From: Minisyncoccota bacterium
GTDB lineage: Bacteria > Patescibacteriota > Minisyncoccia > Phycocordibacterales > Phycocordibacteraceae
Reading direction: 5' to 3'
NCBI GenBank assembly: GCA_041666305.1
Contig: JBAYHD010000005.1
Location: 1 to 55,207 of the forward strand
DNA: 55,207 bases
Below the pieces are notes generated by a model. It did no database searches. It was given only the letters and a program-made list of their open reading frames with translations, and was not told where the DNA came from. A program made the position numbers and the translations under genes. Below, one piece after another: positions 5,505 to 55,136 of the stretch. Each line of letters starts with the position of its first letter. The first letter of the stretch is position 1.

Positions 5505-6809
5505 TTAGATATAGTAGTCACGAATGAAGTCTGCACGATAGTCGTCAAAGCGGCCGTTAAGAATAGCCTCGCGCGCGCCGGCGACCAAATTCAAGATGAA
5601 GCCGACATTGTGCATTGAGCAAATGACCGAGCCGAGCATCTCCCCGCTCCGCACCAAATGTGCCATATACGCCAATGTGAACTCCACACCCATGTGGGAC
5701 TTCGTAAGTCCCACATCAGAAAGAAGGGTGAAGTCGGTGCGGTATTTTTCGCCTTTGAGGTGGGCAATGCCATGCCTGGTGTAGATGGAGCCGTGACGGC
5801 CGATGCGTGTCGCCGCGACGCAGTCAAAGAGGTCCATACCGTTTGCAATGCCTTCGAGGATGTCACCCGGCTCGCCGATGCCGAGGAAGTGCCGCGGTAA
5901 TTCTTCTGGCAACTCACCCACTGCCGCCGCGAGCGCGCTCCGCATGTCCTCTTTTGAGAAAGAGCCGCCGATGCCGATGCCGTCAAAGCCGAGTGAAGCG
6001 ATCTCGCGTGCAGATTCTTTGCGCAAGTCCTCATGACGCCCGCCCTGCACAATGCCGAATATTGCCTGCCCGGACACTACGTCTCGCATTGCGCTTTGCG
6101 CATGGCCGGAGGCCGATGCGAGAAGTAGTGTACGGGCCTGCTTCTTTTCTTCATATTCGAGACGACGGTGATAATCGAGAGACCGTTTTGCCCAGCGATG
6201 AGTCCGGTCCATCGCTTCCTTCTGATATTCGTACGGCTCGGTTGGCGAAGTGCATTCATCGAAGGCGAAGAAGATGTCTGCTCCCAAGGCGTGCTGTATC
6301 TCGACTGAACGTTCAGGCGTGAAGCGGTGGAGCGAGCCGTCGAGATGTGAAGTAAAGGTGACTCCTTCGTCGTCGATGACGGCGAGTTGTCCGTGCTGGC
6401 TCGCCACGTCTTCATCATAAATCACCGGCTTCTCACTTGGAGGCGAAACCTCCAAGTCTTCTTTCGTAAATTTGGAAATGGTTTTCCCGAAGGCCGCGCC
6501 AAGCGAGAACACTTGAAAACCGCCCGAGTCGGTCATCGTGGGTCCTTCCCAGCCCATAAATTTCCCGAGCCCGCCGGCGTCCTGCACAATCTTTTCTCCC
6601 GGCTGGAGATACAGGTGATAGGTATTTGCGAGCACCACTTGCGCACCCAGTTTCCCGAGCGCATCCGGAAGAATTCCCTTCACATTCGCTTTCGTCCCCA
6701 CCGGCACGAAAGCCGGCGTCTGGATGACGCCGTGCGGAGTGGTCAGTGTGCCGGCGCGCGCCCGGCATCCGGGCGCGCGCTTCTCAATCTTGAATTGTAT
6801 CGCGCTCAT
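5505..6809 (-). CDS. tgt: tRNA-guanine transglycosylase (queuine tRNA-ribosyltransferase) homologue
   Basis: 434 aa; TDSGGFQV, GIVQGG and LFDCVAATR motifs. The CxCxxC zinc motif is not visible (see findings). Confidence 0.9.
   Translation of the reverse strand: MSAIQFKIEKRAPGCRARAGTLTTPHGVIQTPAFVPVGTKANVKGILPDALGKLGAQVVLANTYHLYLQPGEKIVQDAGGLGKFMGWEGPTMTDSGGFQVFSLGAAFGKTISKFTKEDLEVSPPSEKPVIYDEDVASQHGQLAVIDDEGVTFTSHLDGSLHRFTPERSVEIQHALGADIFFAFDECTSPTEPYEYQKEAMDRTHRWAKRSLDYHRRLEYEEKKQARTLLLASASGHAQSAMRDVVSGQAIFGIVQGGRHEDLRKESAREIASLGFDGIGIGGSFSKEDMRSALAAAVGELPEELPRHFLGIGEPGDILEGIANGMDLFDCVAATRIGRHGSIYTRHGIAHLKGEKYRTDFTLLSDVGLTKSHMGVEFTLAYMAHLVRSGEMLGSVICSMHNVGFILNLVAGAREAILNGRFDDYRADFIRDYYI
5692..5716. 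repeat. 25-nt palindrome (11+3+11) inside tgt
   Basis: ATGTGGGACTT-CGT-AAGTCCCACAT; encodes VGLTKSHM in tgt. Confidence 0.95.
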
Positions 6810-8094: not shown

Positions 8095-8391
8095 CTACGG
8101 CTTTTGAAATTCTTTAAACCGCTTCACTTCTTCGGCAACGGCGGCCTTCGCTATCTCTTCGTGCCCCGGTACTTCGCGGTCCAAAAATGCTTTTAGTGTC
8201 GCCGCATCACCCGCCTCGGCAAGCTTCGCGAATTCTTCGCGCTTATTTTCTGCGAGCTTCCCGAACACCGCAACAGATGCGGCCTTCAGCGCAATTTCAC
8301 CGAACTGCGCGATGAGCGTCTGCTGTTCCGCGAGCGGAAGTTCCGCAATTCCCAAGTCGGTCGCTATCAACTTCGTCATTTCGTCTTGCAT
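8095..8391 (-). CDS. Hypothetical helical protein
   Basis: 98-aa ORF; its start codon directly abuts the 100-bp hairpin element at 8393-8492. Confidence 0.5.
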   Translation of the reverse strand: MQDEMTKLIATDLGIAELPLAEQQTLIAQFGEIALKAASVAVFGKLAENKREEFAKLAEAGDAATLKAFLDREVPGHEEIAKAAVAEEVKRFKEFQKP

Positions 8392-8392
8392 A

Positions 8393-8492
8393 CCCCGTAT
8401 GACTACTGTGAGTAGCCTCGATTATGAATAAAAAGAGCACGTCCCTGCATCACTGCGGCACTTTGTTGATTCGTGAGTGTAGTCATACGGGG
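8393..8492 (-). repeat. Related 100-bp hairpin element abutting the start codon of gene 8095-8391
   Basis: Perfect 14-bp arms CCCCGTATGACTAC (8393-8406) and GTAGTCATACGGGG (8479-8492); flanked by CATA at 8389-8392 and 8493-8496. Right flank CATAGGTG is identical to that of copy 2. Confidence 0.85.
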
Positions 8493-8515
8493 CATAGGTG
8501 GCATCATAGCATGGG

Positions 8516-11240: not shown

Positions 11241-14018
11241 TTATTTCGTGAGATAACGCTCGCGAATCATATTTTCAACTGTAGCACGGTCGCGGCCATA
11301 GGTGAGTGAGGAAAGATGCACGAGGTCTTCCACTTGTGCGTGATTAAGTGCCGGCAAGTCCGGCGTTCTCATGTCAAAAGGCTTCTGCGGTATGCCGGCG
11401 GCAAGAATTTTCGCATACGCATTGCGCGTTTCAATATTCACAAAATCGAGCGCTTCAAAGACTGGAGCGAACTGCTTCGCGAAGAATTCCGCATCTTCCT
11501 CGCCCACACGGAAAACCGCCATGTTGCCCACATTGCCGAAGACCGCATCGCGCGTCTTCTCTTCTATCTGCTTGAGGAACTGATGCGCCACGGTGAGCGC
11601 AAGCTTGTATTTGCGTGCCTCCGAAAGAATGCCGGGAATGGAATCGGTCGTTACATTCTGGAACTCGTCTATATATAGGTAGAACGGCGGATACGGCGCA
11701 CGAGGATTATCGGCGCGCGAGAGCGCCGCCATAAAGAGCTTGCCGACGATGATAAGGCCGAGGAGATTCGCATTCTTCTCGCCCAGGCGGCCCTTGGAAA
11801 GATTGATGAGCAGGATTTTCTTTGTATCCATCACCTCGCGGAACTTGAACGACGATTCTTGCTGGCCGACGATGGGGCGAATGAAATCGTTCGCGGTGAA
11901 ATCGTCGAATTTGTTCGTGATGTACGGCACGATGTTTTCAAGCGACGCGTCGCCGCCGGCCTTCGATGCAATGTCGTTCCAAAATTGATTCACGATGGGG
12001 TTCATGCTCTTCGCAAGCTTCTCGCGGCGGAACTCGCTATTGGAAAGCACGCGTGCGATATCCAAAATGGTGGAGCCGCTTGCGGGGTCTTCCATCACGA
12101 GCTGAGTCGCGTTGCGGAAGTATTGTTCGAATGCCGGTCCCATACTTTCGGGCACATCGCCGTAGAGCCGGCGGAATATCATCAAAAGCTCGTTCACGAT
12201 GAAGGTTTTCTGCTCCGGGCGCGAAATATTGTATTCAAGGAAGTTCAGCGAGAACGGGCGCGAAAGGTCGGCAGGATCGAAATAAATAACGTCCTTGTAT
12301 CGCTCCGGCGGCACCGCGGCAAGAATATCCAAAATGTCCGAACCGTGCGGGTCAATGAAGCAGCACCCCTCGCCGTTCATGATGTCCTGAATGATCATGG
12401 ACTTCATCAGTCCCGTCTTACCGGTTCCGGTTTGACCGATGATATAGAGGTGGCGCAGGCGGTCTTCGGGATCGAGGTATACGCGCGTTTCCTGCCCGCG
12501 ATACGTGTTTATCCCCAGAAGAACCGACCCCACTGGCGCTTGCCCCGTTTGAAATCCGATTTCTAATGGGGCAGGCGCATGCGTGAAGCGCGATTGTTTC
12601 AGATGCGGCGAGGATTCAATACCCGATGGCGGGAAATGGTAGATGGTGGTGAGTTCGCGCAAAGACAATGGGAGCGCATCAGCGCCAGAAAGACGGAATG
12701 AAAAATTATCGAACTCTTCCTGTGCATGGTGCCCTTCGGCGCGTACGAACTTCAATTGATTTCCCTGCGTATTCCCGAATTGATTGAATGATGCTTCCAA
12801 ATCGCCGAGTATTTGTTCCGCCGTGCGCTCGTTCCCCGAGGAAACGACGAGTCGTATCGTCGCACCCACGATGGGCGAAGCGATCTTCTTCTCCACCTGC
12901 TCGATGTAGATTTTGTTCGCTTCCACTTGACGCGTCTCTGCCTGCTTCGCTTTCTCCACATCCTTCGGCTTGCTGGAGAAAAGTGTTTTGCCGATATCGC
13001 GCGCAAATTCTCCGAATGCAGTCTCAGGTGTGGAGAAGGCGGACGATTTTTTCTCTCCCTTACGCAACGCCTGCAAAATTTTCCGATAATGCTTCACATG
13101 CCGGTCGCCGCGCGGTTCAATGATTATCTGGAGCGCCGCGCCTTCGCCGATGTGCTCAATTTTTGCGAACGCATTGAGTATCGCATTGAGAGGGTCTTGG
13201 TCGAAGTCGGTGTAATCCTTGAGCGGAAGGACCGGATTGTCGGTAAAATGTGCGACCGAGGCGAGCGAGGTCCCGCCGCGCGCGAATACGTTGTAGTCGT
13301 ACGGCTGCGGGACCAGGTGCGCATCGGGGAATACAGCGAGCAGCTGTTTTTCGAAAAGATTGCGCTTGCTGTTCGGTACTGCGGCGTAGAACTGCAGTTC
13401 GGGGCTGTCTGCAGGCACGGCTAGCTCGAGCGCGAAATGATGCGACTCGCCTGAAACCGCGTCTCCAACGGAAAGCAGGCCGGAATAAAATTGCTCCATA
13501 GCGGAGATGAGCTCCTTGAGCGTCTTCGTGCGCACATTCGGCTCGGCATTTTTCGGCTCCGGCAGCGCAATTTCATACAGCGTCATGCGCAGTGCTTGAA
13601 AACGAGGCGTCTGTTCATCAAGCCCGGGTGCTCCGATACCGGCTGCAATGTACCGCACGAGGTAGCGATGAAAGTCATCCGCAATATGCGGGTCGCGAAG
13701 TTTTTCAAGCACGTGGAGTGCATTTTTGATGCCCTTTTCTTCCATGGTGCGACGCAGGGCGTCTATCGCGCCGGCTCCCCCGCCTAAATTGAGCTCGGCG
13801 AGTATCGCTTCCGCCTCGCTTTCTTTTGTTGCGTTGTTGATGCGATATTCGGGGGCAAGGATTTTTTCAGGCGCTGCCTGATGCTCGTGAATTGTTTCAG
13901 AAATGATCTGTGCGCGCTCCGCGCCTTGGCCCGCGAGTTCCGCTTCTTTGCTCGCGACCCGCTCGCGCAGATACGCGAGCTCTTCCTCGGGCGTGGACAA
14001 CTTCGGCGCTGTTTCCAT
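11241..14018 (-). CDS. FtsK/HerA-superfamily ATPase resembling T4SS coupling proteins (VirD4/TraG/TraD-like)
   Basis: 925 aa; Walker A IIGQTGTGKTG, CCFIDPHGSD, Walker B-like YLYIDEFQN, LTVAHQF. Confidence 0.75.
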   Translation of the reverse strand: METAPKLSTPEEELAYLRERVASKEAELAGQGAERAQIISETIHEHQAAPEKILAPEYRINNATKESEAEAILAELNLGGGAGAIDALRRTMEEKGIKNALHVLEKLRDPHIADDFHRYLVRYIAAGIGAPGLDEQTPRFQALRMTLYEIALPEPKNAEPNVRTKTLKELISAMEQFYSGLLSVGDAVSGESHHFALELAVPADSPELQFYAAVPNSKRNLFEKQLLAVFPDAHLVPQPYDYNVFARGGTSLASVAHFTDNPVLPLKDYTDFDQDPLNAILNAFAKIEHIGEGAALQIIIEPRGDRHVKHYRKILQALRKGEKKSSAFSTPETAFGEFARDIGKTLFSSKPKDVEKAKQAETRQVEANKIYIEQVEKKIASPIVGATIRLVVSSGNERTAEQILGDLEASFNQFGNTQGNQLKFVRAEGHHAQEEFDNFSFRLSGADALPLSLRELTTIYHFPPSGIESSPHLKQSRFTHAPAPLEIGFQTGQAPVGSVLLGINTYRGQETRVYLDPEDRLRHLYIIGQTGTGKTGLMKSMIIQDIMNGEGCCFIDPHGSDILDILAAVPPERYKDVIYFDPADLSRPFSLNFLEYNISRPEQKTFIVNELLMIFRRLYGDVPESMGPAFEQYFRNATQLVMEDPASGSTILDIARVLSNSEFRREKLAKSMNPIVNQFWNDIASKAGGDASLENIVPYITNKFDDFTANDFIRPIVGQQESSFKFREVMDTKKILLINLSKGRLGEKNANLLGLIIVGKLFMAALSRADNPRAPYPPFYLYIDEFQNVTTDSIPGILSEARKYKLALTVAHQFLKQIEEKTRDAVFGNVGNMAVFRVGEEDAEFFAKQFAPVFEALDFVNIETRNAYAKILAAGIPQKPFDMRTPDLPALNHAQVEDLVHLSSLTYGRDRATVENMIRERYLTK

Positions 14019-14024: not shown

Positions 14025-14121
14025 CAGTATACCCGAGCACTCACCGTTTTTTTCGTTCACTCTGCACAAGTTTGGTGTGGAGAGTGTTTCTAGGAGAATC
14101 GGTGAGTGCTCGGGTATACTG
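14025..14121. promoter_or_regulatory. Perfect 22-bp inverted repeat (52-nt spacer) carrying a TATACT -10 box in each arm, between divergent start codons
   Basis: CAGTATACCCGAGCACTCACCG (14025-14046) and CGGTGAGTGCTCGGGTATACTG (14100-14121). TATACT lies 7 nt before ATG 14018 (minus strand) and 8 nt before ATG 14129 (plus strand). Inner imperfect repeat CACTCTGCACA/TGTGGAGAGTG. Confidence 0.8.
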
Positions 14122-15287: not shown

Positions 15288-16001
15288 TTATACCAAATGC
15301 ACGACCGTGTAGAGCACGAGTGCGCCAAAAAGCGTCATGATGGTCGTGAGCGCGCGCGGATGCCGATGATGGCTTTCAGGAATGAGGTCGCTTGCCGAGA
15401 GGTAGAGGAACGAACCGACGAAGACGGCAAGTACGAGACCGATGGATGATTCGGGAATGCGGAAAAGAAGCGTGGAGGCGGCGCCGGCAACCGGCGCCGC
15501 CGCATCGATCAAGAGCCAATTAAATGCGCGACGCCAGCTCCCGCCGTTTTTCAGCACCAGGTTTACCGTATTGATACCGTCAGAAAAATCGTGCGTGAGC
15601 ACGGCGGCCGTTACGACGATGCCGACCGCAGCGGACGCCTGAAAGCCGATGCCGATCGCCATGCCGTCCAGAAAACTGTGCGTGGAGAGTGTGAGTGCGC
15701 CGAAAAACCCCCGCGGGGTGTTGATTTCTGAGTCTTCTTCGTGTGTGTGGAGAAGAATGAGTCGGTCAAGCAGCAAGTATCCGAAAAATCCAATGGCAAT
15801 GAAAAATGATATGGTCGCGCTGGTATGATATATCATACCAGCTTGAATCGCCTCGGGCAGGAGATCAAAAAGAGCAACGCCCGCGACCGCACCCGCCGAG
15901 AAGCCGAGGATGAGATGAAGCTTGTCGCGGAATCGCAGGGCGAATGAACCTCCTATAAAAGTGGCGACCGAAGCGGCCAGGGCGATATATAGGATATTCA
16001 T
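15288..16001 (-). CDS. ZIP family metal transporter
   Basis: Start trimmed to MNILYIALAA; HSFLDGMAIG and HDFSDGINT motifs. Contains the 24-nt palindrome at 15819-15842. Confidence 0.85.
   Translation of the reverse strand: MNILYIALAASVATFIGGSFALRFRDKLHLILGFSAGAVAGVALFDLLPEAIQAGMIYHTSATISFFIAIGFFGYLLLDRLILLHTHEEDSEINTPRGFFGALTLSTHSFLDGMAIGIGFQASAAVGIVVTAAVLTHDFSDGINTVNLVLKNGGSWRRAFNWLLIDAAAPVAGAASTLLFRIPESSIGLVLAVFVGSFLYLSASDLIPESHHRHPRALTTIMTLFGALVLYTVVHLV
15819..15842. repeat. 24-nt perfect palindrome inside the ZIP transporter gene
   Basis: GCTGGTATGATATATCATACCAGC; in-frame AGMIYHTS. Confidence 0.95.
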
Positions 16002-22232: not shown

Positions 22233-22282
22233 ATGTTTCAAACTCTACCACTACTTTCGCCATTCGTCCGCCCTCATTCCCA

Positions 22283-22315
22283 CTATTCTACTATTCGCGC
22301 GAATTAGAGAATAGA
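22283..22315 (-). promoter_or_regulatory. Second copy of the 33-bp palindrome, overlapping the arsR stop and upstream of tRNA-Gln
   Basis: CTATTCTACTATTCGCGCGAATTAGAGAATAGA (32/33 identical to the first copy). Confidence 0.65.
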
Positions 22316-22570
22316 GATGATGGAACGAGCCGGTGACGACAGATCGCGGGCCAGGGAGTAGAACATCTGCAGACTCCTCTGCTCGCGGTCCAGCAAATTC
22401 GCCGACGAGAGTATGCCCAGATGCTTTGACGTTGCCTTGAACGAGAGGCGGATTTCTTCGGCGATGTCGCCGACATTTGCCTCTTTTTCTTTCTTAACGA
22501 AACGCAGAATGGCGAGCCTGCGCCGGTTCGCCAGCGCTTTCAGAGTCCGTTCAAGTTCTTTGTCCGCCAT
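22304..22570 (-). CDS. ArsR/SmtB family transcriptional regulator
   Basis: 88 aa; LKALANRRRLAILRFV winged-HTH signature; flanked by two copies of a 33-bp palindrome. Confidence 0.8.
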   Translation of the reverse strand: MADKELERTLKALANRRRLAILRFVKKEKEANVGDIAEEIRLSFKATSKHLGILSSANLLDREQRSLQMFYSLARDLSSPARSIISIL

Positions 22571-22576
22571 ACGTAA

Positions 22577-22609
22577 CTATTCTACCATTCGCGCGAATTA
22601 GAGAATAGA
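22577..22609 (-). promoter_or_regulatory. 33-bp palindromic operator-like site 6 nt upstream of the arsR ATG
   Basis: CTATTCTACCATTCGCGCGAATTAGAGAATAGA, with core ATTCGCGCGAAT and outer CTATTCT/AGAATAG. The gene-strand arm contains TAGAAT 8 nt before the ATG. Confidence 0.7.
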
Positions 22610-24256: not shown

Positions 24257-25258
24257 CTATACGAGCGGACCAACAGCGTCAAGTGTCATTTTCTCGAGCT
24301 CAGTAGCGCTCTCCGCGGTCATGAGTTTTGTGCGCAGCTCCGCTGCGCCGGCAAAGCCGGTAACGAACGCTTTGATATGCTTTTTCAAAATCGCAAAACT
24401 TTTAGCGGGCGTTATCTTTTCAAAATCGTATGCGAGTTCAAGGAGCGCCGCGAGTTTCTCGGCGAGCGGCGTGTCTTCCGTTTTTCTGCCGGCGAATACC
24501 CATGGATTACCGAACATTGCACGGCCGAACATTGCACCGTCGCATCCTGACTCTGCAACTTTTGTCCGCGCGTCTTCCATGTCCTGCACGTCGCCATTAC
24601 CGATAAGAAGCACTTTCGGATTTACGCGGTCGCGCAACGCGACCGCTTTTTTCATCAGCTCCCAATCGGCGGGCACGAACGACATCTCTTTGCGCGTACG
24701 CAAATGGAGAGTGATGGCGACGGGATTCGCTTCAAGAAGCGCCGTCAGCCATTCATCAAGCGACTCTTTGTTATATCCGATGCGTGTTTTCACCGAGACC
24801 GGCAACGGACTGGCTTCCTTAGCGGCACGAATAAGCTCCTTGGCGAGCGCGGGATTCTTCACCAATGCTGCGCCCGCGCCCTGTTTCTCAATGCTTTTAT
24901 CCGGACAGCCCATATTGAGGTCAACACCATCAAAACCTAGCTCGGCAACGAGCTTCGTCGCATACGTAATCATCTCCGGTTTGCCGGAAAAGATCTGTGC
25001 GGCAATGGGCCGCTGTTCTTCTGTAAACTGCAAATCCCGCAATAGGGGGTTGCTGGTATGATATATCATACCAGCACGCGATTCGATTTCCCCCCTTTCG
25101 ATCAGATGGAAAAGTCCGTCGGCCGAAACGAATTCCGTCCAGAACACGTCCGGCTTCCCATGTTTCGCCACGAGCGCGCGAAAAGCAACGTCGGTGACGT
25201 CCGCCATCGGTGCCATCACGAAAAATGGCTTAGGTAAGCCTTGCCAGAACGATTTCAT
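24257..25258 (-). CDS. tRNA-dihydrouridine synthase
   Basis: Start trimmed to MKSFWQGL; MAPMADVTD, DLNMGCP and VKTRIG motifs. Contains the 24-nt palindrome at 25052-25075. Confidence 0.85.
   Translation of the reverse strand: MKSFWQGLPKPFFVMAPMADVTDVAFRALVAKHGKPDVFWTEFVSADGLFHLIERGEIESRAGMIYHTSNPLLRDLQFTEEQRPIAAQIFSGKPEMITYATKLVAELGFDGVDLNMGCPDKSIEKQGAGAALVKNPALAKELIRAAKEASPLPVSVKTRIGYNKESLDEWLTALLEANPVAITLHLRTRKEMSFVPADWELMKKAVALRDRVNPKVLLIGNGDVQDMEDARTKVAESGCDGAMFGRAMFGNPWVFAGRKTEDTPLAEKLAALLELAYDFEKITPAKSFAILKKHIKAFVTGFAGAAELRTKLMTAESATELEKMTLDAVGPLV
25052..25075. repeat. Identical 24-nt perfect palindrome inside the dus gene
   Basis: GCTGGTATGATATATCATACCAGC; in-frame AGMIYHTS. Confidence 0.95.
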
Positions 25259-28348: not shown

Positions 28349-29128
28349 ATGAAAATTTACTCTTGGAACATGTTGTTCCGCAACAAGGAACAAGACCGCG
28401 CGTTCGAGTTCATCAAGAACAGCGATTTCGATATTTTCTGTTTGCAGGAAGTGCCGGAAGAATTTCTCAAACGATTGCAGACGCTTCCCTGTTCTATTGC
28501 GGAACGCATTGATGTCGAACGGCTTTTTGCAAAAGGCACGATGTCCAATTATGTCGTCATACTTTCCAAATACCCGATCGAAGCGCAGGGTGAAATATCC
28601 TTCCCCGACTATTGGCATCTCTTACCGCTACGTACGCGCATCTTCGTCCGACTCATGAAACCGTTCGGGTTTTCAAAGATACGCAATCGCGGCGCCATTT
28701 TCGCCGATATCCGCGTTCCCCTTTTATCGCATACTATTCGCGTTTTTAATCTGCACATCATCCTCGCCCAACCGGCGTGGCGATTGAAGGAATTTGAGAC
28801 CGCAATGGCCGAACGCGATCCAGCTCGACCGACTATCGTCTGCGGCGATTTTAATACCGTTCAATCTCCGCACATTTCAATATTGAATTGGTTCCTTGGC
28901 GGACCCGCGAGCGACGCGCTTTTGTACAACCGCGAACGCACGCGCATAGAACAGCGCTTTGTTGAACACCAATTAACGAATGCGCTTGCCGGCGGCGTCA
29001 CGCATCCATTGTCGCAATCGCAGCTCGACCACATCCTCGTATCGCATTCGTTCTCCATTAAAAATACTTCTGTTATCCCCGACCGATTCGGTTCCGATCA
29101 TCATCCGATCTTCGCTGAAATCTCATAA
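28349..29128 (+). CDS. Endonuclease/exonuclease/phosphatase (EEP) family protein
   Basis: 259 aa; SWN..., CLQEV, GDFN, SDHHP motifs. Confidence 0.8.
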   Translation: MKIYSWNMLFRNKEQDRAFEFIKNSDFDIFCLQEVPEEFLKRLQTLPCSIAERIDVERLFAKGTMSNYVVILSKYPIEAQGEISFPDYWHLLPLRTRIFVRLMKPFGFSKIRNRGAIFADIRVPLLSHTIRVFNLHIILAQPAWRLKEFETAMAERDPARPTIVCGDFNTVQSPHISILNWFLGGPASDALLYNRERTRIEQRFVEHQLTNALAGGVTHPLSQSQLDHILVSHSFSIKNTSVIPDRFGSDHHPIFAEIS

Positions 29129-29138
29129 GCGCGACTTG

Positions 29139-29272
29139 CCCGGTAGGACAACTTGGCATTGTGCATATTGCTCGTTATCAACACGTACGATTCATATCAA
29201 TATCTGCTTCATACACAAGCGTACAGAAGTTATATTTCGGTGCACGAGCGATGCCAAGTAGTCCTCACCGGG
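29139..29272 (+). repeat. Hairpin element copy 1 (134 bp), gene-proximal arm next to the TTG/topA side
   Basis: Arms CCCGGTAGGACAACTTGGCAT (29139-29159) and ATGCCAAGTAGTCCTCACCGGG (29251-29272); flanked by CTTG at 29135-29138 and 29273-29276. Confidence 0.9.
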
Positions 29273-29337
29273 CTTGACCATATATAGGTATGCGCGTTAT
29301 GAGTTAACGTGTGACCAAACGATTACTCATTGTGGAA

Positions 29338-29375
29338 CCCCGTACCAAATGTCTCGGAAGACAGTTGGTACGGGG
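29338..29375 (+). repeat. 11-bp perfect inverted repeat 13 nt upstream of the topA ATG
   Basis: CCCCGTACCAA (29338-29348) and TTGGTACGGGG (29365-29375). Confidence 0.85.
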
Positions 29376-29387: not shown

Positions 29388-31781
29388 ATGAAAAGACTTC
29401 TTATCGTGGAGTCCCCCACGAAGGCGAGGACCATCGGACATTACCTCGGCAAGGACTACACCGTCCTTGCTTCGGTCGGTCATGTGCGCGACTTGCCCAA
29501 ATCAAACAAAGACGCTGTTGATATTGAGGGCGGCTTTATTCCGCGTTATGTGATACCCGCCGAGAAACGCGAAGTCATTGAGAAGATAGAAAATGCGGCG
29601 AAAAAAGCGGACGAGATATATCTCGCGACCGACCCTGACCGCGAGGGCGAGGCGATAGCATGGCACATCAAAGAAGTTGCCGGTCTCAAAAAACCGAAAC
29701 GCGTGGTCTTCCACGAGATCACGAAAGCGGCGGTTGAAGAAGCCATCGCGCATCCGCGCGCCATTGATGAGAATTTGCGCCGCGCGCAAGAAGCGCGGCG
29801 CGTCCTCGACCGCATCGTGGGCTACGACCTTTCCGGCCTCATCTGGAAAAAAGTACGCTACGGGCTTTCGGCCGGGCGTGTGCAATCGCCGGCGCTGCGT
29901 ATCCTTGCAGAGCGCGAGCGCGAGATCAAAGCCTTTACGCCGGTCATTTATTTTGTACTTTCGGCCCTCTTTAAATCAAAAACCGGCGAGGTCGCGACAA
30001 CCTGTGTCGAGCAGCCTTTACTGAAAGAAGTCGCCGACACTATCGTACAGACCGGCAGAAGTGCCAAGTGGAGCGTTGCTGACGTCGGAGAAAAGTCCGA
30101 GGAGCGTAATCCGCGCCCGCCATTCACTACTTCCACCTTGCAACAGACCGCTTCCACGCGCCTCGGCTTCGCGCCTTCACGCACGATGCGCGCAGCACAG
30201 AAACTGTACGAAGCCGGCCACATTACCTATATGCGTACCGACTCGGTGAATCTCGGCACCGACGCAGTCGCAAAGATGGCGAGCGTTGTGGAGAGCCAGT
30301 TCGGGAAAGAATATGTGCAGGTGCGCGTTTACAAAACCACCAGCAAGAACGCGCAGGAAGCACATGAAGCCGTCCGCCCCACCGATGCGGGTAAAGCACG
30401 CGCGGGCGCCACGCCGGACGAAGTGGCACTCTACGAACTTATCCGCATTCGTGCGCTCGCTTCGCAAATGAGCGCCGCGCGCATTATGCGCACGTCTCTC
30501 TCGGTCAAAGCCGATGCTGACATCCCGTTGTTTACCGCAAACGGTTCGCGCATGCTCTTCCCCGGCTGGCTTGCGCTCGATACGGCGGCACGTGGCGAAG
30601 ATGTGGAATTGCCGAAGCTCGCCGTCGGCGATCCTCTTACGCTTCTCTCGCTGTCATCTGAACAAAAACAGACCGAACCGCCGAACCGATACACCGAAGC
30701 GGGTCTCATCAAAGAACTCGAGAAACGCGGTATCGGTCGTCCTTCCACGTACGCGTCAATTATGAAAACCATTCAGGACCGCGGCTATGTGGAAAAGCTT
30801 GGGCGCGCACTGAAGCCGACCGCGACCGGCATGGTCGTCTCCGGATGGCTGGAGGAAAATTTCCCGACCTATGTGAGCGACACGTTCACTGCAGAAATGG
30901 AAAATGAATTGGATGAAATTGCGCGTGGCGAGCGCGGCTATGTCGAGACGCTCAAAGCCTTTTATGGGCCATTTGAAAAAGAGGTGCGCGCTGGAGACAA
31001 ATTGCCGAAGGCAACTTCCCTCGGCGATGTTCCGGTAGAATTCCCCTGCCCGTTGTGTGCAAGTCCGATGGAATTCAAGCTCGGCCGCGGCGGCATCTTT
31101 ATGAGCTGTAAAAAATATCCCGATTGCCTCGGTGCGCGCACTGAAGAAGGAATGGAGCTCAAGGGCGATGAACCGATCGGATACCACCCCGAGACCGGCG
31201 CACCTATTTTTATCAAGACCGGACGTTTCGGACCGTATGTAGAAATGTCATTGCCGGAAGAAATCGTTAAAGAGGAGATTGTCGTTAGTGAAGATGGGAA
31301 GAAACCAAAAAAGAAAGTAACGAAGCGCGGCAAGGGCCGGCCGAAGACCGCTGCGAAGCGCGCAAGCATTCCCGCCGGCACTGACCTCGCGAGCGTGACG
31401 CTCGCCGATGCGCTCAAATACCTCTCGCTTCCGCGAGAGCTCGGGATGCATCCTTCCACCGGCAAAGCGGTATTCGCCTCAACCGGACGCTTCGGCCCGT
31501 ACGTCGGCAGTGACGGAGAATTCCGTTCCATCAAAAAAAGCGATCCGTACACCATTACGTTCGATGAAGCGCTCGCGGTACTCGCAGAGCCGAAGCGACC
31601 ACCGAAAGGCGTGGAGATCGTGAAAGAGATCGGCAAGCATCCGAAGACCGGCAAGACGATGACGCTCTACAAATCAAAACAGGGGTTCTTTTTGAAAAAA
31701 GGCCTCCGCCGCATCTATCTCCCTGAAGCGACCAAGCCCGATTCCTTCACTCCGGAAGAAGCCGCTGAGTATTTGAAATAA
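29388..31781 (+). CDS. topA: DNA topoisomerase I
   Basis: Start trimmed to MKRLLIVESPTKA (Toprim); YMRTDS active-site Tyr region; C-terminal Zn-ribbon (CPLC..C..C) and repeated GRFGPYV motifs. Confidence 0.93.
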   Translation: MKRLLIVESPTKARTIGHYLGKDYTVLASVGHVRDLPKSNKDAVDIEGGFIPRYVIPAEKREVIEKIENAAKKADEIYLATDPDREGEAIAWHIKEVAGLKKPKRVVFHEITKAAVEEAIAHPRAIDENLRRAQEARRVLDRIVGYDLSGLIWKKVRYGLSAGRVQSPALRILAEREREIKAFTPVIYFVLSALFKSKTGEVATTCVEQPLLKEVADTIVQTGRSAKWSVADVGEKSEERNPRPPFTTSTLQQTASTRLGFAPSRTMRAAQKLYEAGHITYMRTDSVNLGTDAVAKMASVVESQFGKEYVQVRVYKTTSKNAQEAHEAVRPTDAGKARAGATPDEVALYELIRIRALASQMSAARIMRTSLSVKADADIPLFTANGSRMLFPGWLALDTAARGEDVELPKLAVGDPLTLLSLSSEQKQTEPPNRYTEAGLIKELEKRGIGRPSTYASIMKTIQDRGYVEKLGRALKPTATGMVVSGWLEENFPTYVSDTFTAEMENELDEIARGERGYVETLKAFYGPFEKEVRAGDKLPKATSLGDVPVEFPCPLCASPMEFKLGRGGIFMSCKKYPDCLGARTEEGMELKGDEPIGYHPETGAPIFIKTGRFGPYVEMSLPEEIVKEEIVVSEDGKKPKKKVTKRGKGRPKTAAKRASIPAGTDLASVTLADALKYLSLPRELGMHPSTGKAVFASTGRFGPYVGSDGEFRSIKKSDPYTITFDEALAVLAEPKRPPKGVEIVKEIGKHPKTGKTMTLYKSKQGFFLKKGLRRIYLPEATKPDSFTPEEAAEYLK

Positions 31782-50102: not shown

Positions 50103-50381
50103 TTATTGCCCTCGTATCGTTTGGCGGATGTCCGGAAGATTGAACGTGCCGAGCGCGATATTAATGACGCCGTACGCACCGAATATGATGACGAGCCCCA
50201 CGAGACCCCATAAGATAGCGCTCTTGCCCTCTTTGCGCTTCGTTTCGTCCCCCGCGTGCGCAATGAACTCAAACACACCCCAGAGGAACACCACGAACGC
50301 GACCGCTGCAAGAAGCAGGATTATCGGATCGATAATCTGCGTAACAACCCTCCCGAGGAAATTATTGAGTGTGGCGAACAT
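50103..50381 (-). CDS. Small T4SS-pilin-like (TrbC/VirB2-like) membrane protein, paralogue 1
   Basis: 92 aa; two TM helices flanking a charged loop: AAVAFVVFLWGVFEFI..GDETKRKEGKSAILWGLVGLVII. Confidence 0.65.
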   Translation of the reverse strand: MFATLNNFLGRVVTQIIDPIILLLAAVAFVVFLWGVFEFIAHAGDETKRKEGKSAILWGLVGLVIIFGAYGVINIALGTFNLPDIRQTIRGQ

Positions 50382-50756
50382 TTACCCGCCGACCTGAACG
50401 CCTGAACTAGGAGTTGTGCTCGGACCGGTCGAATCACCAAAAGTGATGGTACCGGTCAGGATGTTCACCAGACCCCAGACGGAGACCATCACGAAGAAGC
50501 CGATGAGGCCCCAGAGCATGAGGTTCTTACCCTTCTCTTTCACCTCCTCGGAATTGGCGCCGAGAATGAACGTATCGAACGCTCCCCAGAGGAAGACGAT
50601 GAACGCCACCGCGAAGAGCACCGGGACGAGGATGTTGTTGATGGTATTGATAATGAACGAACCGACGTCGGAAATGTTGCTGACCGCGGCCATAGAGACG
50701 AGCGGGAGCGCAAATGCGACGAGTGTTCCTGTTGTGAGGGCTAGAGCTTTTTTCAT
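50382..50756 (-). CDS. Small T4SS-pilin-like membrane protein, paralogue 2
   Basis: Start trimmed to MKKALALTTG (signal peptide); NILVPVLFAVAFIVFLWGAF..EEVKEKGKNLMLWGLIGFFVMVSVWGLVNI. Confidence 0.65.
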   Translation of the reverse strand: MKKALALTTGTLVAFALPLVSMAAVSNISDVGSFIINTINNILVPVLFAVAFIVFLWGAFDTFILGANSEEVKEKGKNLMLWGLIGFFVMVSVWGLVNILTGTITFGDSTGPSTTPSSGVQVGG

Positions 50757-50849
50757 AGTATGGGTAAGTGAATAACGGATTAATTGTAACGTTTCTGTTG
50801 TCGCGGTCAATGAGATTCCGCGCGGTATGTGGATAGCCTTACCAACGTG

Positions 50850-51773
50850 CTAACACGAGTATGGGTCCCCATTATCGTCATAGCAGGTACCCGTCGTAGT
50901 TTGGGGTGGACAAGATGCGGTATCAAATGCTTGGCTTCCATCCCAACAGGTAACATACGACTGCGTAGTGGCAACACAATTTCCGTTGGCATCTACAGTC
51001 CCCTCGTGGTCATAGGCATCTAAGCAGTAAGATCCAAGTCCTGGGCTCGTACCGCCCGATGCCGATGCTTCACAAGTTGGATAACCTAAACTCATGCCGC
51101 ACGTGAGCCCCGTGGCACAAGGAGAATACGTGCAGTCCGCTCCGAGACCGACAGCGCTAATCTGCGCATTCTGGATAGTTGCGCTAGGATTTGGATACAC
51201 CGAATAATAAGAGGCTGAATACGCTGCTTGAGCCGCCTGACAATCGGCGCTCGTACTGCTCGAACTGCAAACGCCTTGCATAGAGTTGTACTGAGTCGTC
51301 AGTGCCGCGACCTGGGCAGGAGTTATGGTCACCGAGCCTCCTCCTGTTGTTGCCGCCGGCGGATTCCCGAATATGGAATTTGCCCCCGTTGAAGAGACTC
51401 CACCAACGTTGCCGATGGTCGGATACGCCGGTGCCTGGCCGACCGAGAGACCGAGCGTGCTCATGAAGATGTTCACAATGCCCCAAAGCGACAGGATGAC
51501 GACAAACCCAATAACGCCCCAGAGCGTGAATTTTCGACCGTCCTCGCGGCTTTTCTCTTCGGAGGCGCCTTGAATGAAGTATTTGTACACGCCGAAGAGG
51601 AATACGATGAACGCGATAGCCATCAAAACCGGCACGAGGATGCCATTGATGACGCCGATGATGCTATTGGAGTAGTTCTGCAAATAGGACACATTGACGC
51701 CGGTCTGCGCAGCCGCTACAAACGGCGCGCCGAAAGACGCGACGGGAGCGGCGAATCGGAAGATTTTTTTCAT
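50850..51773 (-). CDS. T4SS-pilin-like protein, paralogue 3, with Cys-rich C-terminal extension
   Basis: 307 aa; signal peptide, GILVPVLMAIAFIVFLFGVY..EEKSREDGRKFTLWGVIGFVVILSLWGIVNI, then a ~190-aa Cys/Gly/Ser/Thr-rich tail. Confidence 0.65.
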   Translation of the reverse strand: MKKIFRFAAPVASFGAPFVAAAQTGVNVSYLQNYSNSIIGVINGILVPVLMAIAFIVFLFGVYKYFIQGASEEKSREDGRKFTLWGVIGFVVILSLWGIVNIFMSTLGLSVGQAPAYPTIGNVGGVSSTGANSIFGNPPAATTGGGSVTITPAQVAALTTQYNSMQGVCSSSSTSADCQAAQAAYSASYYSVYPNPSATIQNAQISAVGLGADCTYSPCATGLTCGMSLGYPTCEASASGGTSPGLGSYCLDAYDHEGTVDANGNCVATTQSYVTCWDGSQAFDTASCPPQTTTGTCYDDNGDPYSC

Positions 51774-51787
51774 ATTTTATTCTGGCG

Positions 51788-52192
51788 TTATATACAATTC
51801 CCGCTCGCGTCTTTCGGGCATTCTGTATAGACCGTTCCTCCCGCTCCCGTCGTTCCGTAGGGAGAGATGGATGACGGTGTCGGGGGCGCGTAGTAACCTG
51901 CGAGACCAAAGGTGTTCGCAACCACATTCACGAGTCCCCAGACGGATATCATTACCACAAATGCGATGATGCCCCACAAAAGAAGCTTGTGCCCTTCCGA
52001 CACCTTTGCCGGATCGCCTCCCGAGAAAATATACGCCTTGGCGATGCCGTACAGGAATACGATGAAGGCAATGGCGAACAAGACCGGTACCAGGACATTA
52101 TTGATGAGGTAAAGGATGTTTTGCGCGACCGCGCAGAGCGTATTCGTGCACACATTACCGATCGATATGCCAAGTCCAAAAGAAATATTCAT
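51788..52192 (-). CDS. T4SS-pilin-like protein, paralogue 4
   Basis: 134 aa; NVLVPVLFAIAFIVFLYGIA..DPAKVSEGHKLLLWGIIAFVVMISVWGLVNV. Confidence 0.65.
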   Translation of the reverse strand: MNISFGLGISIGNVCTNTLCAVAQNILYLINNVLVPVLFAIAFIVFLYGIAKAYIFSGGDPAKVSEGHKLLLWGIIAFVVMISVWGLVNVVANTFGLAGYYAPPTPSSISPYGTTGAGGTVYTECPKDASGNCI

Positions 52193-52210
52193 ACGTTCCA
52201 GTATACCGAA

Positions 52211-52486
52211 TTATGGCTGCGGCATGATGCCGAGCGTGGATAACACTATATTTACGAATCCCCAAACGGAGAAAAGCACCACTATGCCGATGAGACCCCA
52301 AACGATGAATTTCCGCCCTTCTTCGCGCTTGGCTTCTTCATCGCCGTGGAGAAAAAAATAATTCACCACACCCCATATGAACGCTGCGAAGGCGAAGGCG
52401 AAGATGACCGGAACGACGACCATATTCAGAAGGCCGATGATGCCCGAGGAGCCGTCGCCGATGAAATTCTTTAAACTTGTGCCCAT
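52211..52486 (-). CDS. T4SS-pilin-like protein, paralogue 5
   Basis: 91 aa; MVVVPVIFAFAFAAFIWGVV..DEEAKREEGRKFIVWGLIGIVVLFSVWGFVNI. Confidence 0.65.
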   Translation of the reverse strand: MGTSLKNFIGDGSSGIIGLLNMVVVPVIFAFAFAAFIWGVVNYFFLHGDEEAKREEGRKFIVWGLIGIVVLFSVWGFVNIVLSTLGIMPQP

Positions 52487-53051: not shown

Positions 53052-54355
53052 TGTTGGAGAAGCGCAGTCAGAGACTGCTCGGCGGAGACGAGCGCGGATT
53101 GAAGACTCAAACGGCCGCTTATCACACTTCCAATCATACCCGAGAACACCGCGTCGGTATCGGTGGGTGCTGGGGACAGCCATCCGCGGGCATACAGCGC
53201 CTCAGCGTATGCGACCGCTCCCACAGGGTCGGTCGGCACGCTCGAAAGTTGATTCAGCGTCGCCGGAGCGAGACCCGTATTCGCGACGGCAACGACCTGT
53301 TCGGCGGAATTGGTCAGGAGCACGGCCGTTTGATATGCACCCGCCGGATTTTTTGCTCCACGCGGAGCCATGAACGCATATACGAGCCCGTACGTACTTT
53401 TCAGCTGCGACGTTGCGGGCTGCGGCACAACGCTAACACTGAAATCAAGGTTTGGGTTCGCCGAACGCAAGTAGCGCGCCTCGGAAACGTACCCGAGATA
53501 GAGCGCGAGATCGCCCGAAAGGAATGATTGTTGTGAGTCCGGCAACGACGAATTCCACGTGTATGAGATCTTTGAAGGATCGGCGAACTGCGTGTAGAAA
53601 CCAAGCACCGTGGGCCCCGGAGCCCTTCCGACTGTCGTGGCTAATCCGAGGTTCGCGGCAATGACGCCGCCGGTCGAATATCCGGAAACCGGAACGCCTT
53701 GCTGCAAAAAGAGCGTGGAAAGTATCCCGCGCGCGTTGTGAACGTTTGTGTATGTGCCGAGGGCGATAAGACCGCGCGTGATCTGTCGCGAGGGTGTGAG
53801 TATCGCGATATTTGGCACAAGACCGGTCAGTGCTTCCCATGAAGCCGGGGGTCTTGCGATGCCGCTGCTCTGCAAAATGGCGCGATTGGAGAACAACACG
53901 AGCGGGTCCACGAGAAATGGAATGCCCCAGTAGCCGGTTCCTCCCCGTGTGGCGAATATGCTCGCTCCTCCGATGAATGCGTTCGTGAACGTGCTTTGGG
54001 AAAGCGTCGCGGAAGGTATCGGTGTGATGAATTTCGTAAGCGGTTGAAGCTCCTCCTGTGTAGCAAGCACGAGATCGGGCGCGGCGCCGGTCGCTATCGC
54101 CGAAGCGAGATCGGCCGGCAAGGTTGCGGTATTTTTCTGCACATAGGAAACGCTTTTCAGTGACGGATCAATTCCGGTCGCTGCGACCAGAGTCGCTTCC
54201 ATAGCCGAGGACGGTAGCGTGCCCCAAATCACGACCGTGCCAATGGCGCTTGCGTTGTTACTTTTGCTCGTATAGGTGGCGAAGACGAACAGCCCGACCA
54301 GGGCGCCGATACCGAATACCGCAAAAAGGATCCATTGAAAGAGGGAGATTTTCAT
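53048..54355 (-). CDS. Extracellular solute-binding protein (ABC sugar-type SBP fold), membrane-anchored, orphan
   Basis: 435 aa; N-terminal TM helix; VVIWGTL, APDLVL, GIPFLVDPLVLFSN..PPASWEAL typical of family-1 SBPs. No permease or ATPase gene in the window. Confidence 0.7.
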   Translation of the reverse strand: MKISLFQWILFAVFGIGALVGLFVFATYTSKSNNASAIGTVVIWGTLPSSAMEATLVAATGIDPSLKSVSYVQKNTATLPADLASAIATGAAPDLVLATQEELQPLTKFITPIPSATLSQSTFTNAFIGGASIFATRGGTGYWGIPFLVDPLVLFSNRAILQSSGIARPPASWEALTGLVPNIAILTPSRQITRGLIALGTYTNVHNARGILSTLFLQQGVPVSGYSTGGVIAANLGLATTVGRAPGPTVLGFYTQFADPSKISYTWNSSLPDSQQSFLSGDLALYLGYVSEARYLRSANPNLDFSVSVVPQPATSQLKSTYGLVYAFMAPRGAKNPAGAYQTAVLLTNSAEQVVAVANTGLAPATLNQLSSVPTDPVGAVAYAEALYARGWLSPAPTDTDAVFSGMIGSVISGRLSLQSALVSAEQSLTALLQQ

Positions 54356-54894
54356 ACCGTGGGAGACGTGAAGACAATGCCGTAATGATGCGGTCCGGCA
54401 CGGAAGGATTTCACTTTATGAAAACCGCCGTTGATGAAGAAATCCTCCGCCTGATGTTCGGAAACGACTTTCTCCGGCGCGGGACCCATGCCCCCGTAAC
54501 TTCCCGCCCAGTCCACCACCATGAGCTTGCCGCCGGGCTTCAGTACGCGTTTCATTTCCTTCAAGAGCGCAAAGCGATTTTCTATCTGGAAAAAGGTGTT
54601 GGCGAGCAAAATGGCGTCGAGCGACCCGTCGCGCAGATGCGTGCCGCCGGGCTTTTCAATGTCGCCCCAAATCGTGTTGATGATGTTTTGGTGGTGTACG
54701 TGCGCATTGAGTTTGATGTGCTTCAGTACATCTTCCTGCACATCGATTGCATACACTTTCCCGCCGTGGCCCACGACCGCGGCGGCGGCACGCGTGTAAT
54801 GGCCGGAGCCGGCGCCGAAGTCGCCGACCTTCATTCCTTCTCGCAGGCCGAGCTGAAGAACATTCTCGTGGGGAGAACTGAAATGCGCGCTCAT
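54352..54894 (-). CDS. Class I SAM-dependent methyltransferase
   Basis: 180 aa; VGDFGAGSGHYT motif I; ATGA overlap with the SBP gene. Its start codon abuts hairpin element copy 4. Confidence 0.8.
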   Translation of the reverse strand: MSAHFSSPHENVLQLGLREGMKVGDFGAGSGHYTRAAAAVVGHGGKVYAIDVQEDVLKHIKLNAHVHHQNIINTIWGDIEKPGGTHLRDGSLDAILLANTFFQIENRFALLKEMKRVLKPGGKLMVVDWAGSYGGMGPAPEKVVSEHQAEDFFINGGFHKVKSFRAGPHHYGIVFTSPTV

Positions 54895-54895
54895 A

Positions 54896-55030
54896 CCCGG
54901 TGAGGACTACTTGGCATTGCTCCTCCGTGTCGGACGGAGAATAAAATCGTGCCGCTAGTAAAATGATTGAGGGTCATATTTTAAAATGGATTTGTGGAGC
55001 AGTGACACTATGCCAAGTTGTCCTACCGGG
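54896..55030 (-). repeat. Hairpin element copy 4 (135 bp), abuts the methyltransferase start codon
   Basis: Arms CCCGGTGAGGACTACTTGGCAT (54896-54917) and ATGCCAAGTTGTCCTACCGGG (55010-55030); flanked by CATA at 54892-54895 and 55031-55034. Confidence 0.9.
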
Positions 55031-55136
55031 CATACTATATAAAATACCACGCGCGGCCCGCCTCTAGCCGCGCAATCAACACATAATGAACCACAGCCGC
55101 CTAGAAGGCGGCTGTATCCTTAGCGCACTAAAGTGC

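Follow-up and report, generated by a model that had tools for sequence, protein, structure and literature searches.

The window analysed here is a 55,207-nucleotide stretch of Minisyncoccota bacterium DNA (GenBank assembly GCA_041666305.1, contig JBAYHD010000005.1), and our subject is a hairpin element, which we call family 1, that occurs four times within it. The copy of chief concern (copy 4) lies close to the right-hand end of the window, between a methyltransferase gene and the promoter of that gene. With its flanks, at 54892-55034, it reads CAT-A-CCCGGTGAGGACTACTTGGCAT ... ATGCCAAGTTGTCCTACCGGG-CATA, and the ends of the element itself are CCCGGTNAGGAC. The features of the locus are as follows.

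54352-54894, minus strand: S-adenosylmethionine (SAM)-dependent methyltransferase gene, 180 aa, downstream of copy 4
54892-54895, minus strand: proximal copy of the target duplication, TATG on the gene strand, holding the methyltransferase start codon (CAT at 54892-54894)
54896-55030, minus strand: copy 4 of the family-1 hairpin element, 135 nt, with an AT-rich interior
55031-55034, minus strand: distal copy of the target duplication, TATG on the gene strand, presumed to supply the 5'-terminal AUG of the transcript
55041-55049, minus strand: TGGTATTTT, the methyltransferase promoter's extended -10 box, lying 7 nt upstream of the distal ATG

A preceding sequence-only reading had reported four such hairpins, each bracketed by exact 4-nt direct repeats, and we found their coordinates, sequences and repeats to be as described. 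The other three copies are these.

35881-36015, minus strand: copy 2, with CATA duplications at 35877-35880 and 36016-36019
38565-38698, minus strand: copy 3, with CATA duplications at 38561-38564 and 38699-38702
29139-29272, plus strand: copy 1, inverted relative to copies 2-4, with CTTG duplications at 29135-29138 and 29273-29276

Copy 2 abuts the ATG of a peroxiredoxin gene (35220-35879), and copy 3 that of a gene for a 345-aa protein without a Pfam family (37526-38563), with TATGAT plus 6 nt upstream of its distal TATG. Aligning the four copies reveals about 30 conserved bases at each end around an AT-rich middle that cannot be aligned, and in all four it is the gene-side arm that has the extra base, as the sequence-only reading had noted. 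Its statement that every hairpin sits at a start codon holds for copies 2, 3 and 4 but not for copy 1, and hence for three of the four in the window. Copy 1 lies 7 nt past the stop of gene 28349-29128 and 115 nt ahead of the topA start at 29388. The adjoining TTG had been taken for an in-frame start of topA; however, the topA start is the ATG at 29388, with the Toprim domain running from residue 4 of that open reading frame (ORF; Pfam), and the TTG frame, open in the window, closes after 20 codons at the orthologous locus L069. The proximal CTTGACC beside copy 1 may serve as a -35 box. A short hairpin at 29338-29375, CCCCGTACCAA...TTGGTACGGGG, stands 13 nt ahead of the real topA start codon; its CCCCG/CGGGG ends resemble those of the mobile hairpins, and it is without a flanking repeat.

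We scanned one genome per prokaryotic species (185,579 species genomes) for the 22-nt arm and obtained seven true matches, all in Patescibacteria (Kaiserbacteria, Paceibacterota and Minisyncoccia metagenome-assembled genomes, MAGs) and each with a partner arm about 135 nt away. A two-arm pattern gave three further copies and a metagenome scan 26 further stretches. After deduplication, 38 distinct copies were tabulated, and a later variant, L233, brings the total to 39. The carriers, the source of the window among them, are Kaiserbacteria-like Patescibacteria, tiny groundwater bacteria, and the element is 132-142 nt long in different copies. Hainich aquifer assemblies supplied several of these copies (L074, L076 and L080). 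Several copies may share a genome or contig: there are four in the 55-kb window, two on the 1.1-kb contig L090 and three in the MAG STE_50 (L009, L034 and L233). All 38 tabulated copies have 4-nt flanks, identical in about 30 of them and mismatched only at the fourth base in the remainder.

In 33 of the 38 copies the extra-base arm is preceded by CAT plus one base (once two), with a long ORF starting from that ATG, and the far end continues as CATA or CATG. Copies are therefore enriched at start codons, as had been anticipated. These 33 copies stand, in a single orientation, before about 19 unrelated genes, among them those for peroxiredoxin, the methyltransferase, FtsX, MreB, an RNase H-like exonuclease, a sigma-region-4 protein, RNase III, GreA, a MraY-type transferase, RsmH and Fmt. 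The Pfam domains of the downstream proteins begin within residues 1-19 and empty orthologs use the same ATG, from which it follows that the proximal ATG is the true start. The distal ATG is also intact in 33/33, preceded by T or C, and beyond YATG (Y being T or C) the reconstructed targets have nothing in common by eye. The five copies not at starts occupy three further sites and have exact repeats (CAAG, CAAC or CTTG); an exact 4-nt repeat away from ATG, TTTG, is also seen at L010. Some start-codon sites are internal to operons (rnc in L034 and fmt in L092, probably also L021 and L090), where a long upstream ORF, reading xAU GCC CGG UAG, is closed by the UAG that the element supplies 8 nt into the stem, so placement is not tied to promoters. 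Thus, the earlier proposal of insertion at the TATG of leaderless genes was right in its target, if broadened to YATG, but too narrow in its restriction to leaderless genes, since it leaves out these operon-internal copies and the peroxiredoxin gene, which probably has a short leader.

We compared about 150 orthologous loci, 80 for the methyltransferase (67-97% protein identity) and 73 for the peroxiredoxin. At the methyltransferase site most of the 80 orthologs are empty and have a single YATG, mostly reading ...GTTGATTGCGCGG-hairpin-CGCGTGNTATTTTATAGGY|ATGAGCGCGCAT, in which six bases separate an extended -10 box from one ATG, the layout of a leaderless gene. About 70 of the orthologous promoters retain this box, TGNTATTTT, at 6 nt ahead of the single ATG. 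About 70 of the 73 peroxiredoxin orthologs are likewise empty, the occupied ones being those of the window, L230 and L233, and occupancy comes to about 2-3% of orthologs. The methyltransferase of L093 has 97% protein identity to that of the window and an empty site, and that of L094, from the same MAG, has 96% identity and a hairpin of another kind in that position. Occupied alleles are dispersed over the methyltransferase gene tree with empty nearest neighbours, which implies that the element is often gained or lost and that its loss is precise.

The sequence-only reading had named target-site duplication as one of two explanations, and had proposed that orthologs be searched for empty sites with a single tetranucleotide. 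Both loci bear this out, the methyltransferase orthologs with one YATG 6 nt after the extended -10 box, and copies away from ATG also have exact repeats. Because the repeats are exact and differ from site to site, they reflect target-site duplication and not a conserved motif or an element-borne end. [quoted passage not shown] At the level of sequence, then, we take these comparisons to show that 54892-55034 is a copy of a non-autonomous foldback (MITE-type) mobile element, which integrates by a 4-bp staggered cut, nearly always at YATG, thereby duplicating these four bases, and which can be lost precisely, with one YATG left behind.

Several other identities were considered and rejected. An in-frame coding insertion does not fit lengths of 132-142 nt and a distal-ATG frame that always closes, and an IS200/IS605-like insertion 3' of a fixed tetranucleotide does not fit flanks that vary together. 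The cores of an integron attC site (RYYYAAC / GTTRRRY) would be matched as GTTAGGA only where the extra base is T, other copies having GTGAGGA or GTCAGGA. The start-codon copies from independent assemblies are all in one orientation and, by eye, there is no -10 box at a usable distance from the proximal ATG, both of which speak against an inverton, and the downstream genes are unrelated, which speaks against a regulon leader. An internal promoter for a leaderless transcript was rejected because, by eye, there is no TANNNT in the 12 nt before the proximal ATG (GUCCU-N-ACCGGGU). For a known RNA family or self-cleaving ribozyme there was no Rfam match to the element at the gathering threshold or at E <= 10; in Rfam 15 only tRNAs reached the gathering threshold.

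Upstream of the methyltransferase gene we also observed a terminator-like GC-rich hairpin at 55050-55074, whose T tract overlaps the methyltransferase -10 box. It is preceded, about 40 nt before the gene, by a conserved motif, GTTGATTG, in the window and in orthologs L093-L172, and in L104, L116, L120 and L163 it is swapped for a longer, unrelated hairpin. A consensus scan picked out an outward promoter-like pair at 55018-55045 on the plus strand (TTGTCC in the distal arm, a spacing of 16 nt, then TAAAAT), which could drive opposite-strand transcription away from copy 4.

How strong is the preference for start codons? A crude gene call makes about 94% of the window coding, and of the YATG occurrences in it 41 fall at called starts, 48 in the remaining non-coding DNA and 599 in coding DNA. 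Context-blind insertion that survived outside coding DNA would thus be expected at starts in about 46% of cases; observed were 19/19 independent YATG-flanked sites (p ~4e-7), all in one orientation (~2^-18). Insertion at the start of mreB or fmt should be the most dangerous kind of all, yet it is found. As the target consensus, YATR, is near-palindromic, the orientation bias is unlikely to be mechanical. The copies that persist overwhelmingly have a start codon as their duplicated YATG and lie in one orientation.

Copies at the same site in different organisms allow conservation in place to be assessed. Their arms are 82-99% identical and their interiors 42-84%, compared with 32-60% at third codon positions over the first 300 nt of the neighbouring gene. 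Within a site the interiors are homologous, between sites they are unrelated, and so these are inherited copies and not fresh arrivals. The comparison points firmly to constraint in place, with the stem and inner helices apparently held by purifying selection.

On the gene strand, the RNA of copy 4 is predicted to fold at -53.4 kcal/mol (z = -6.4 against shuffles), with the following helices.

55030-55025 with 54901-54896, minus strand: P1, CCCGGU with ACCGGG, with a 1-nt bulge at 54902
55024-55010 with 54917-54903, minus strand: P2, 15 bp
55008-55004 with 54931-54927, minus strand: A:A', GUGUC with GACAC
55001-54996 with 54923-54918, minus strand: B:B', UGCUCC with GGAGCA

P1 and P2 together form the terminal inverted repeats, 21 bp with one extra base in one arm, and over 37 copies 96-100% of cells are paired. 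The lower stem, CCCGGUAGGAC / GUCCU-N-ACCGGG, is near-invariant in sequence as well as in pairing, and P1 is constant in all 37 except L233, in which a G-C pair has become A-U by changes on both sides. In P2 both-side changes affect 7/15 pairs, with 96% of cells paired, and at the GreA site there is a compensatory pair, C-G in L075 versus U-A in L080. Altogether 13 pairs have both-side changes; the observed covariation is reached by 0/500 shuffles, and when the partner was slid by one column as a control, pairing fell from 88% to <40%. The two YAUG copies can pair with each other on the gene strand only (U.G, A-U, U-A, G.U, with C-G where the distal base is C), and 88% of cells are paired. No double changes occur there, and this is thus compatible with pairing without being evidence for it. 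The other explanation in the sequence-only reading, a functional 5' module in which the stem pairs the real AUG with its duplicate, gains some support from this strand-specific pairing and from the purifying selection indicated for the stem, but the element, carried by only a small fraction of orthologs, is not a conserved leader of these genes.

Above P2 are two helices that cross in sequence order and both covary between copies. B:B' (UGCUCC/GGAGCA) stacks on P2 with 7-10 nt bulged on the 5' side, and has the variants UGCUUC/GAAGCA, UACUCC/GGAGUA and UGCUCG/CGAGCG. A:A' (CGUGUC/GACACG) has 7-9 nt bulged on the 3' side and the variants CGUGCC/GGCACG, CAUGCC/GGCAUG and GGGGAU/AUCCCC. Counted in fixed columns A:A' is 57% paired, a figure that reflects a distance to P2 varying by 1-3 nt; counted sequence by sequence it has 5-7 bp in most copies. 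Minimum-energy folds choose A:A' or B:B' depending on the copy, and the two would form either a compact pseudoknot or two alternative states. Crossing inner helices exceed what a plain transposon end needs. We saw no conserved unpaired nucleotides of the ligand-pocket or ribozyme-core type.

Family 1 is not the only hairpin at such sites. A generic hairpin scan of 750 kb of related DNA brought out an unrelated-looking family 2 (TCCCGTTAGAAAT...ATTTCTAACGGGA, about 80-120 nt, flanked by TGAA and once by TGAG), with copies at these positions.

L104, 2039-2155; L122; L123, 2039-2153 and 2158-2276 (in tandem); L128; L171
L092, 287-403; L094, 1386-1501; L095, 3347-3425; L149, 2065-2142; L181, 1990-2066

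All 11 left duplications are preceded by A, so the site was ATGAA. In five genomes the site is the ATGA overlap between the methyltransferase stop and the start of the next gene, an overlap that in the window (54352-54355) is unoccupied. After insertion the distal copy keeps the stop, and the last base of the element plus TG rebuilds the proximal start; nine copies have T..A as their outermost pair, which yields ATG, and two have C..G, which yields GTG. Three IMG/VR stretches contain related elements with other flanks.

Two further hairpins of other types lie in the window.

8393-8492, minus strand: hairpin of a separate family, 100 nt, CCCCGTATGACTAC...GTAGTCATACGGGG, with CATA duplicated at 8389-8392 and 8493-8496
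14032-14114, minus strand: hairpin of another type, 83 nt, CCCGAGCACTCACCG..., with TATA duplicated on both sides (span 14028-14118)

The first abuts the ATG of an ORF at 8095-8391 (98 aa, without a Pfam family) and has TATGAT plus 7 nt upstream of its distal TATG; the -10-like boxes that had been noted before the distal TATG of this element and of copies 3 and 4 are indeed present. For the second, the proximal TATA is part of a -10 box, TATACT, 7 nt before the ATG at 14018 of a HerA-like gene (11241-14018).

What happens to expression of the gene behind the hairpin? In the window, TANNNT stands 6-9 nt ahead of the ATG of most genes, which lack a Shine-Dalgarno sequence, whereas a minority have GGAG at the normal distance, and in the style of its gene starts this genome would translate mostly leaderless messages. 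Once the element has inserted, an ATG still follows the -10 box at 6-7 nt, namely the distal one, and the transcript should therefore begin AUG-hairpin-U-AUG. The hairpin would thus belong to the mRNA, and we infer that it is tolerated because the duplication preserves the ribosome entry point as well as the true AUG at the base of a single stem. On the distal side the original entry point would be kept, either as a 5'-terminal AUG 6-7 nt after the -10 box or as the stop of an upstream ORF; on the gene side the duplication would leave the AUG intact. The transcript would fold at about -55 kcal/mol and the stem would pair the two YAUGs, placing the entry point beside the true start. Translation from the distal AUG, or of the upstream ORF, might then open the lower stem and terminate within the element or just ahead of it, and ribosomes, kept near by the remaining inner helices, would restart at the exposed proximal AUG. 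Selection would keep the stem because the gene would be uncoupled by a 139-nt leader that was unfolded and had no Shine-Dalgarno sequence. We offer this termination/re-initiation coupling across the hairpin tentatively, as a mechanism somewhat more apt to be wrong than right.

Alleles of a different kind bear on whether re-initiation is workable at this gene. In seven genomes (L101, L117, L127, L140, L141, L149 and L155) a 26-nt insert, ATGAGCCCTTCGACTTACTCAGGATT|ATGA..., separates the -10 box from the methyltransferase ATG, immediately upstream of position 1501, and makes a 9-codon leaderless upstream ORF (uORF), MSPSTYSGL, whose stop overlaps the real start (AUGA). The insert is patchy over the methyltransferase gene tree. 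With such alleles in existence, re-initiation is evidently workable for this gene. In family 1 the distal-AUG frame reads AUG CCC GGU AGG (MPGRTTWH...), the UAG being present only in the +2 frame. In 134-nt copies with A as the extra base this frame ends at UAA, 6 nt before the AUG, and in three 136-nt copies at the UGA of AUGA; in others it ends early.

A number of observations count against this picture of a mobile element crossed by coupled translation. The distal-AUG frame ends anywhere from codon 6 to codon 47, varying even at one site, and a fixed geometry of termination and re-initiation is therefore not conserved. With the stem beginning 0 nt after a 5'-terminal AUG, binding of the 70S ribosome ought to be impeded, unless initiation takes place co-transcriptionally. 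Mean folding energies are alike on both strands (-56.7 versus -56.0 kcal/mol), and the P2 wobble pairs, by our own reading of the arm sequences and not a tool count, stand at 3 versus 3, with no preference for the gene strand. Correction of one arm of a DNA palindrome by the other could yield some of the covariation without selection. At the topA site the arms of a non-start copy are 97% identical between the window and L069, a comparison that lacks a neutral yardstick. Finally, no transposase partner was found by the arm pattern in the species genomes (a pattern that cannot span kilobase gaps), in 750 kb of related DNA or in viral contigs, and mobility is accordingly deduced from polymorphism only.

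Another way to view the same mobile element is as a hairpin that is cut out of the mRNA by RNase III, perhaps with trimming by RNase J, leaving a new 5' end at or near the proximal AUG that would be translated as a leaderless message, with the bulge and internal loops setting the cut site. The stem P0+P1+P2, 25 bp plus 6 more (25-33 bp), would be a textbook RNase III substrate, and such a scheme would account for the single tolerated orientation and fit promoter-proximal and operon-internal copies equally. The Correia elements of Neisseria and the intervening sequences of rRNA are hairpin insertions that RNase III cleaves, and offer a parallel. In a mostly leaderless genome any 5' end made at an AUG should be usable, and a relative, L034, carries the element at the start of its RNase III gene. 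At least 90% of genomes of the candidate phyla radiation (CPR) keep RNase III, RNase J and YchF (PMC12641178). However, RNase III normally cuts within the duplex, leaving a leader of about 10 nt or more, no sequence feature fixes a cut at U|AUG, and in family 2 the A of the AUG itself forms the last stem base pair. Nor would removal give a reason for a distal ATG intact in every start-codon copy while the preceding base varies between T and C. We regard removal as rather unlikely, and prefer re-initiation to it only slightly, the balance being tipped by the UAG at operon-internal sites, the layout of family 2, the alleles with a mini-uORF and the distal ATG that stays intact.

It might also be supposed that the element is a purely selfish, neutral MITE, with a YATG preference and purging elsewhere, its conservation arising from recent spread or arm-to-arm correction. 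Low and patchy occupancy agrees with this, as do the lack of strand preference in wobble pairs and folding energy, the conserved arms at non-start sites, the family-2-like copies with other flanks and the gathering of several unrelated hairpin families at the same hot spots. It is nevertheless improbable: YATG in non-coding DNA away from starts is as common (48 versus 41) and should be a less harmful target, yet every independent YATG site is at a start and in one orientation; same-site interiors have diverged far more than the arms, unlike a recent arrival; the presence of essential genes (mreB, mraY-type, fmt and greA) behind the hairpin means that expression across it must work; and the family-2 terminal pair, T..A or C..G according to ATG or GTG, points to selection on the rebuilt start. 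Very improbable, in our judgement, is a domesticated regulatory leader, in which the lower stem and A:A'/B:B' would be a switch or protein site gating the AUG. The near-invariant sequence of the lower stem, the AUG inside a stem, interiors conserved within each site above the neutral level, and two non-nestable helices that each covary, the signature of a pseudoknot or two-state switch, would suit such a leader. It is opposed by downstream genes (about 19) with no common function, by the scarcity of the element among orthologs, by the lack of an Rfam match at any threshold and of unpaired nucleotides resembling a ligand pocket or ribozyme core, and by the absence of an identified candidate partner protein. 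Taken as a whole, the explanation that we favour (a mobile YATG element, retention of the start codon, and coupled termination and re-initiation) seems to us the best available, and somewhat better than evenly poised to be right.

A bolder extension of this explanation, which we think unlikely and put below even removal by RNase III, is that these are 'translationally transparent' mobile elements, ribosomes crossing a 115-140-nt insert unread in a bacterial likeness of shunting or hopping. Family 1 would achieve this by duplicating the start codon and family 2 by rebuilding it in the ATGA overlap; the fold would set the ribosome entry point beside the true AUG, and A:A'/B:B' would clamp the arms together while the lower stem opens. 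The nearest parallels are the bypassed inserts of T4 gene 60 and the byps of yeast mitochondria, hairpin inserts flanked by identical codons, the byps also looking mobile; here AUG stands on both sides of the hairpin, as take-off and landing codons do, in 33 of 38 copies. Family 1 differs in its length (135 nt versus 50 nt in gene 60), in lying at a start codon and not inside an ORF, and in having no in-frame stop directly after the distal AUG. Shunting in cauliflower mosaic virus involves a short ORF that stops where a very stable stem begins, with translation taken up again just beyond the stem; on sequence alone, family 2 and the operon-internal family-1 copies share this layout. We know of no bacterial ribosome shunt.

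As mobile DNA, the element can be set beside several known systems. Correia (NEMIS) elements are alike in being about 100-150 bp, non-coding and bounded by terminal inverted repeats and a short duplication, with several copies per genome, often just upstream of genes and co-transcribed as a long hairpin. However, they duplicate TA, whereas family 1 duplicates 4 bp, usually YATG, and compared by description they lack its exact placement on start codons, fixed orientation, compensatory stem changes in place and crossing inner helices. The palindromic elements of IS200/IS605 (PATEs) and REPINs, mobilised by Y1 transposases, are also non-coding, orientation-biased hairpins with structure partly conserved over sequence, but make no target duplication and have a constant 5' target and a constant 3' end; in family 1 both flanks change together (CTTG/CTTG, GTTG/GTTG, CAAG/CAAG), as in a true duplication. 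The IS5 group, IS1380 and IS701 share a 4-bp duplication of a near-palindromic target, YTAR for IS5 as against YATR for family 1 (TATG/CATA and CATG, with TATA in the 14032 element), and the ends of IS1380 start with CC. No transposase gene with family-1 ends was found in the DNA examined, and we treat a link to these families as a tentative lead. The intervening sequences of 23S and 16S rRNA are sporadic hairpin insertions with conserved stems and variable AT-rich interiors, and the host RNA still works after RNase III removes them; they lie in rRNA helices, with fragments that are not rejoined, whereas family 1 lies in mRNA at start codons and has duplications. Rickettsia palindromic elements are mobile palindromes that survive where gene function is spared, including in essential genes, but they are translated in frame, unlike family 1, whose distal-ATG frame always closes and whose length is not a multiple of three.

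The survey also turned up repeats of other kinds. A perfect 51-nt palindrome, CATGAAGGGTTTCGGAAATCCTTCATTTGATGAAGGATTTCCGAAACCCTTCAAAG, lies within the miaA coding region of L182, L189 and L226 and is absent from other orthologs; miaA being divergent from the peroxiredoxin gene, this places it about 150 nt upstream of the peroxiredoxin ATG. The peroxiredoxin leaders of L174, L184, L194, L202, L215 and L241 hold further hairpin-like inserts, variable in form (such as TTAGGCGCTAGGCTTTAGGC...GCCTAGTGCCTAACGC), which lie between the ATG and the promoter region that miaA and the peroxiredoxin gene share. Within the window, an identical 27-nt palindrome, GCTGGTATGATATATCATACCAGC, at 15816-15842 and 25052-25078 resembles back-to-back extended -10 boxes, and a 35-nt palindromic sequence with core ATGTGGGACTTACGAAGTCCCACAT occurs at 5682-5716 and 43211-43245 (97% complementary). 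A 34-nt direct repeat (22282-22315 and 22576-22609; 97% identical and internally palindromic) brackets a small ORF at 22304-22570 beside a tRNA gene, and on the minus strand at 50260-52430 there are four to five tandem paralogous small genes with segments 60-80% identical (repeat families D1, D2 and D4).

Mobile hairpins are common in bacteria. Full-text literature searches gave us no account of a family that duplicates the start codon itself as its target, and no match on MITEs in CPR bacteria, on leaderless genes with MITEs or on leaderless genes with CPR bacteria. The significance of the element is that essential genes (mreB, mraY-type, fmt, greA and rnc) come immediately after a hairpin of about -55 kcal/mol and have no Shine-Dalgarno sequence, and these bacteria must therefore be able to start translation at the foot of a long stem. 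This poses a concrete, testable question about translation initiation in streamlined, largely leaderless bacteria, for which the occupied and empty alleles are natural pairs for experiment, and it supplies a rule for gene-callers on start sites in Patescibacteria. It also means that genomes of about 1 Mb with about 6% non-coding DNA still host active, precisely excising mobile DNA at start codons and stop/start junctions. If ribosomes do pass over such inserts unread, then this would be selfish DNA living inside the start sites of essential genes by way of a counterpart of ribosome shunting or hopping.

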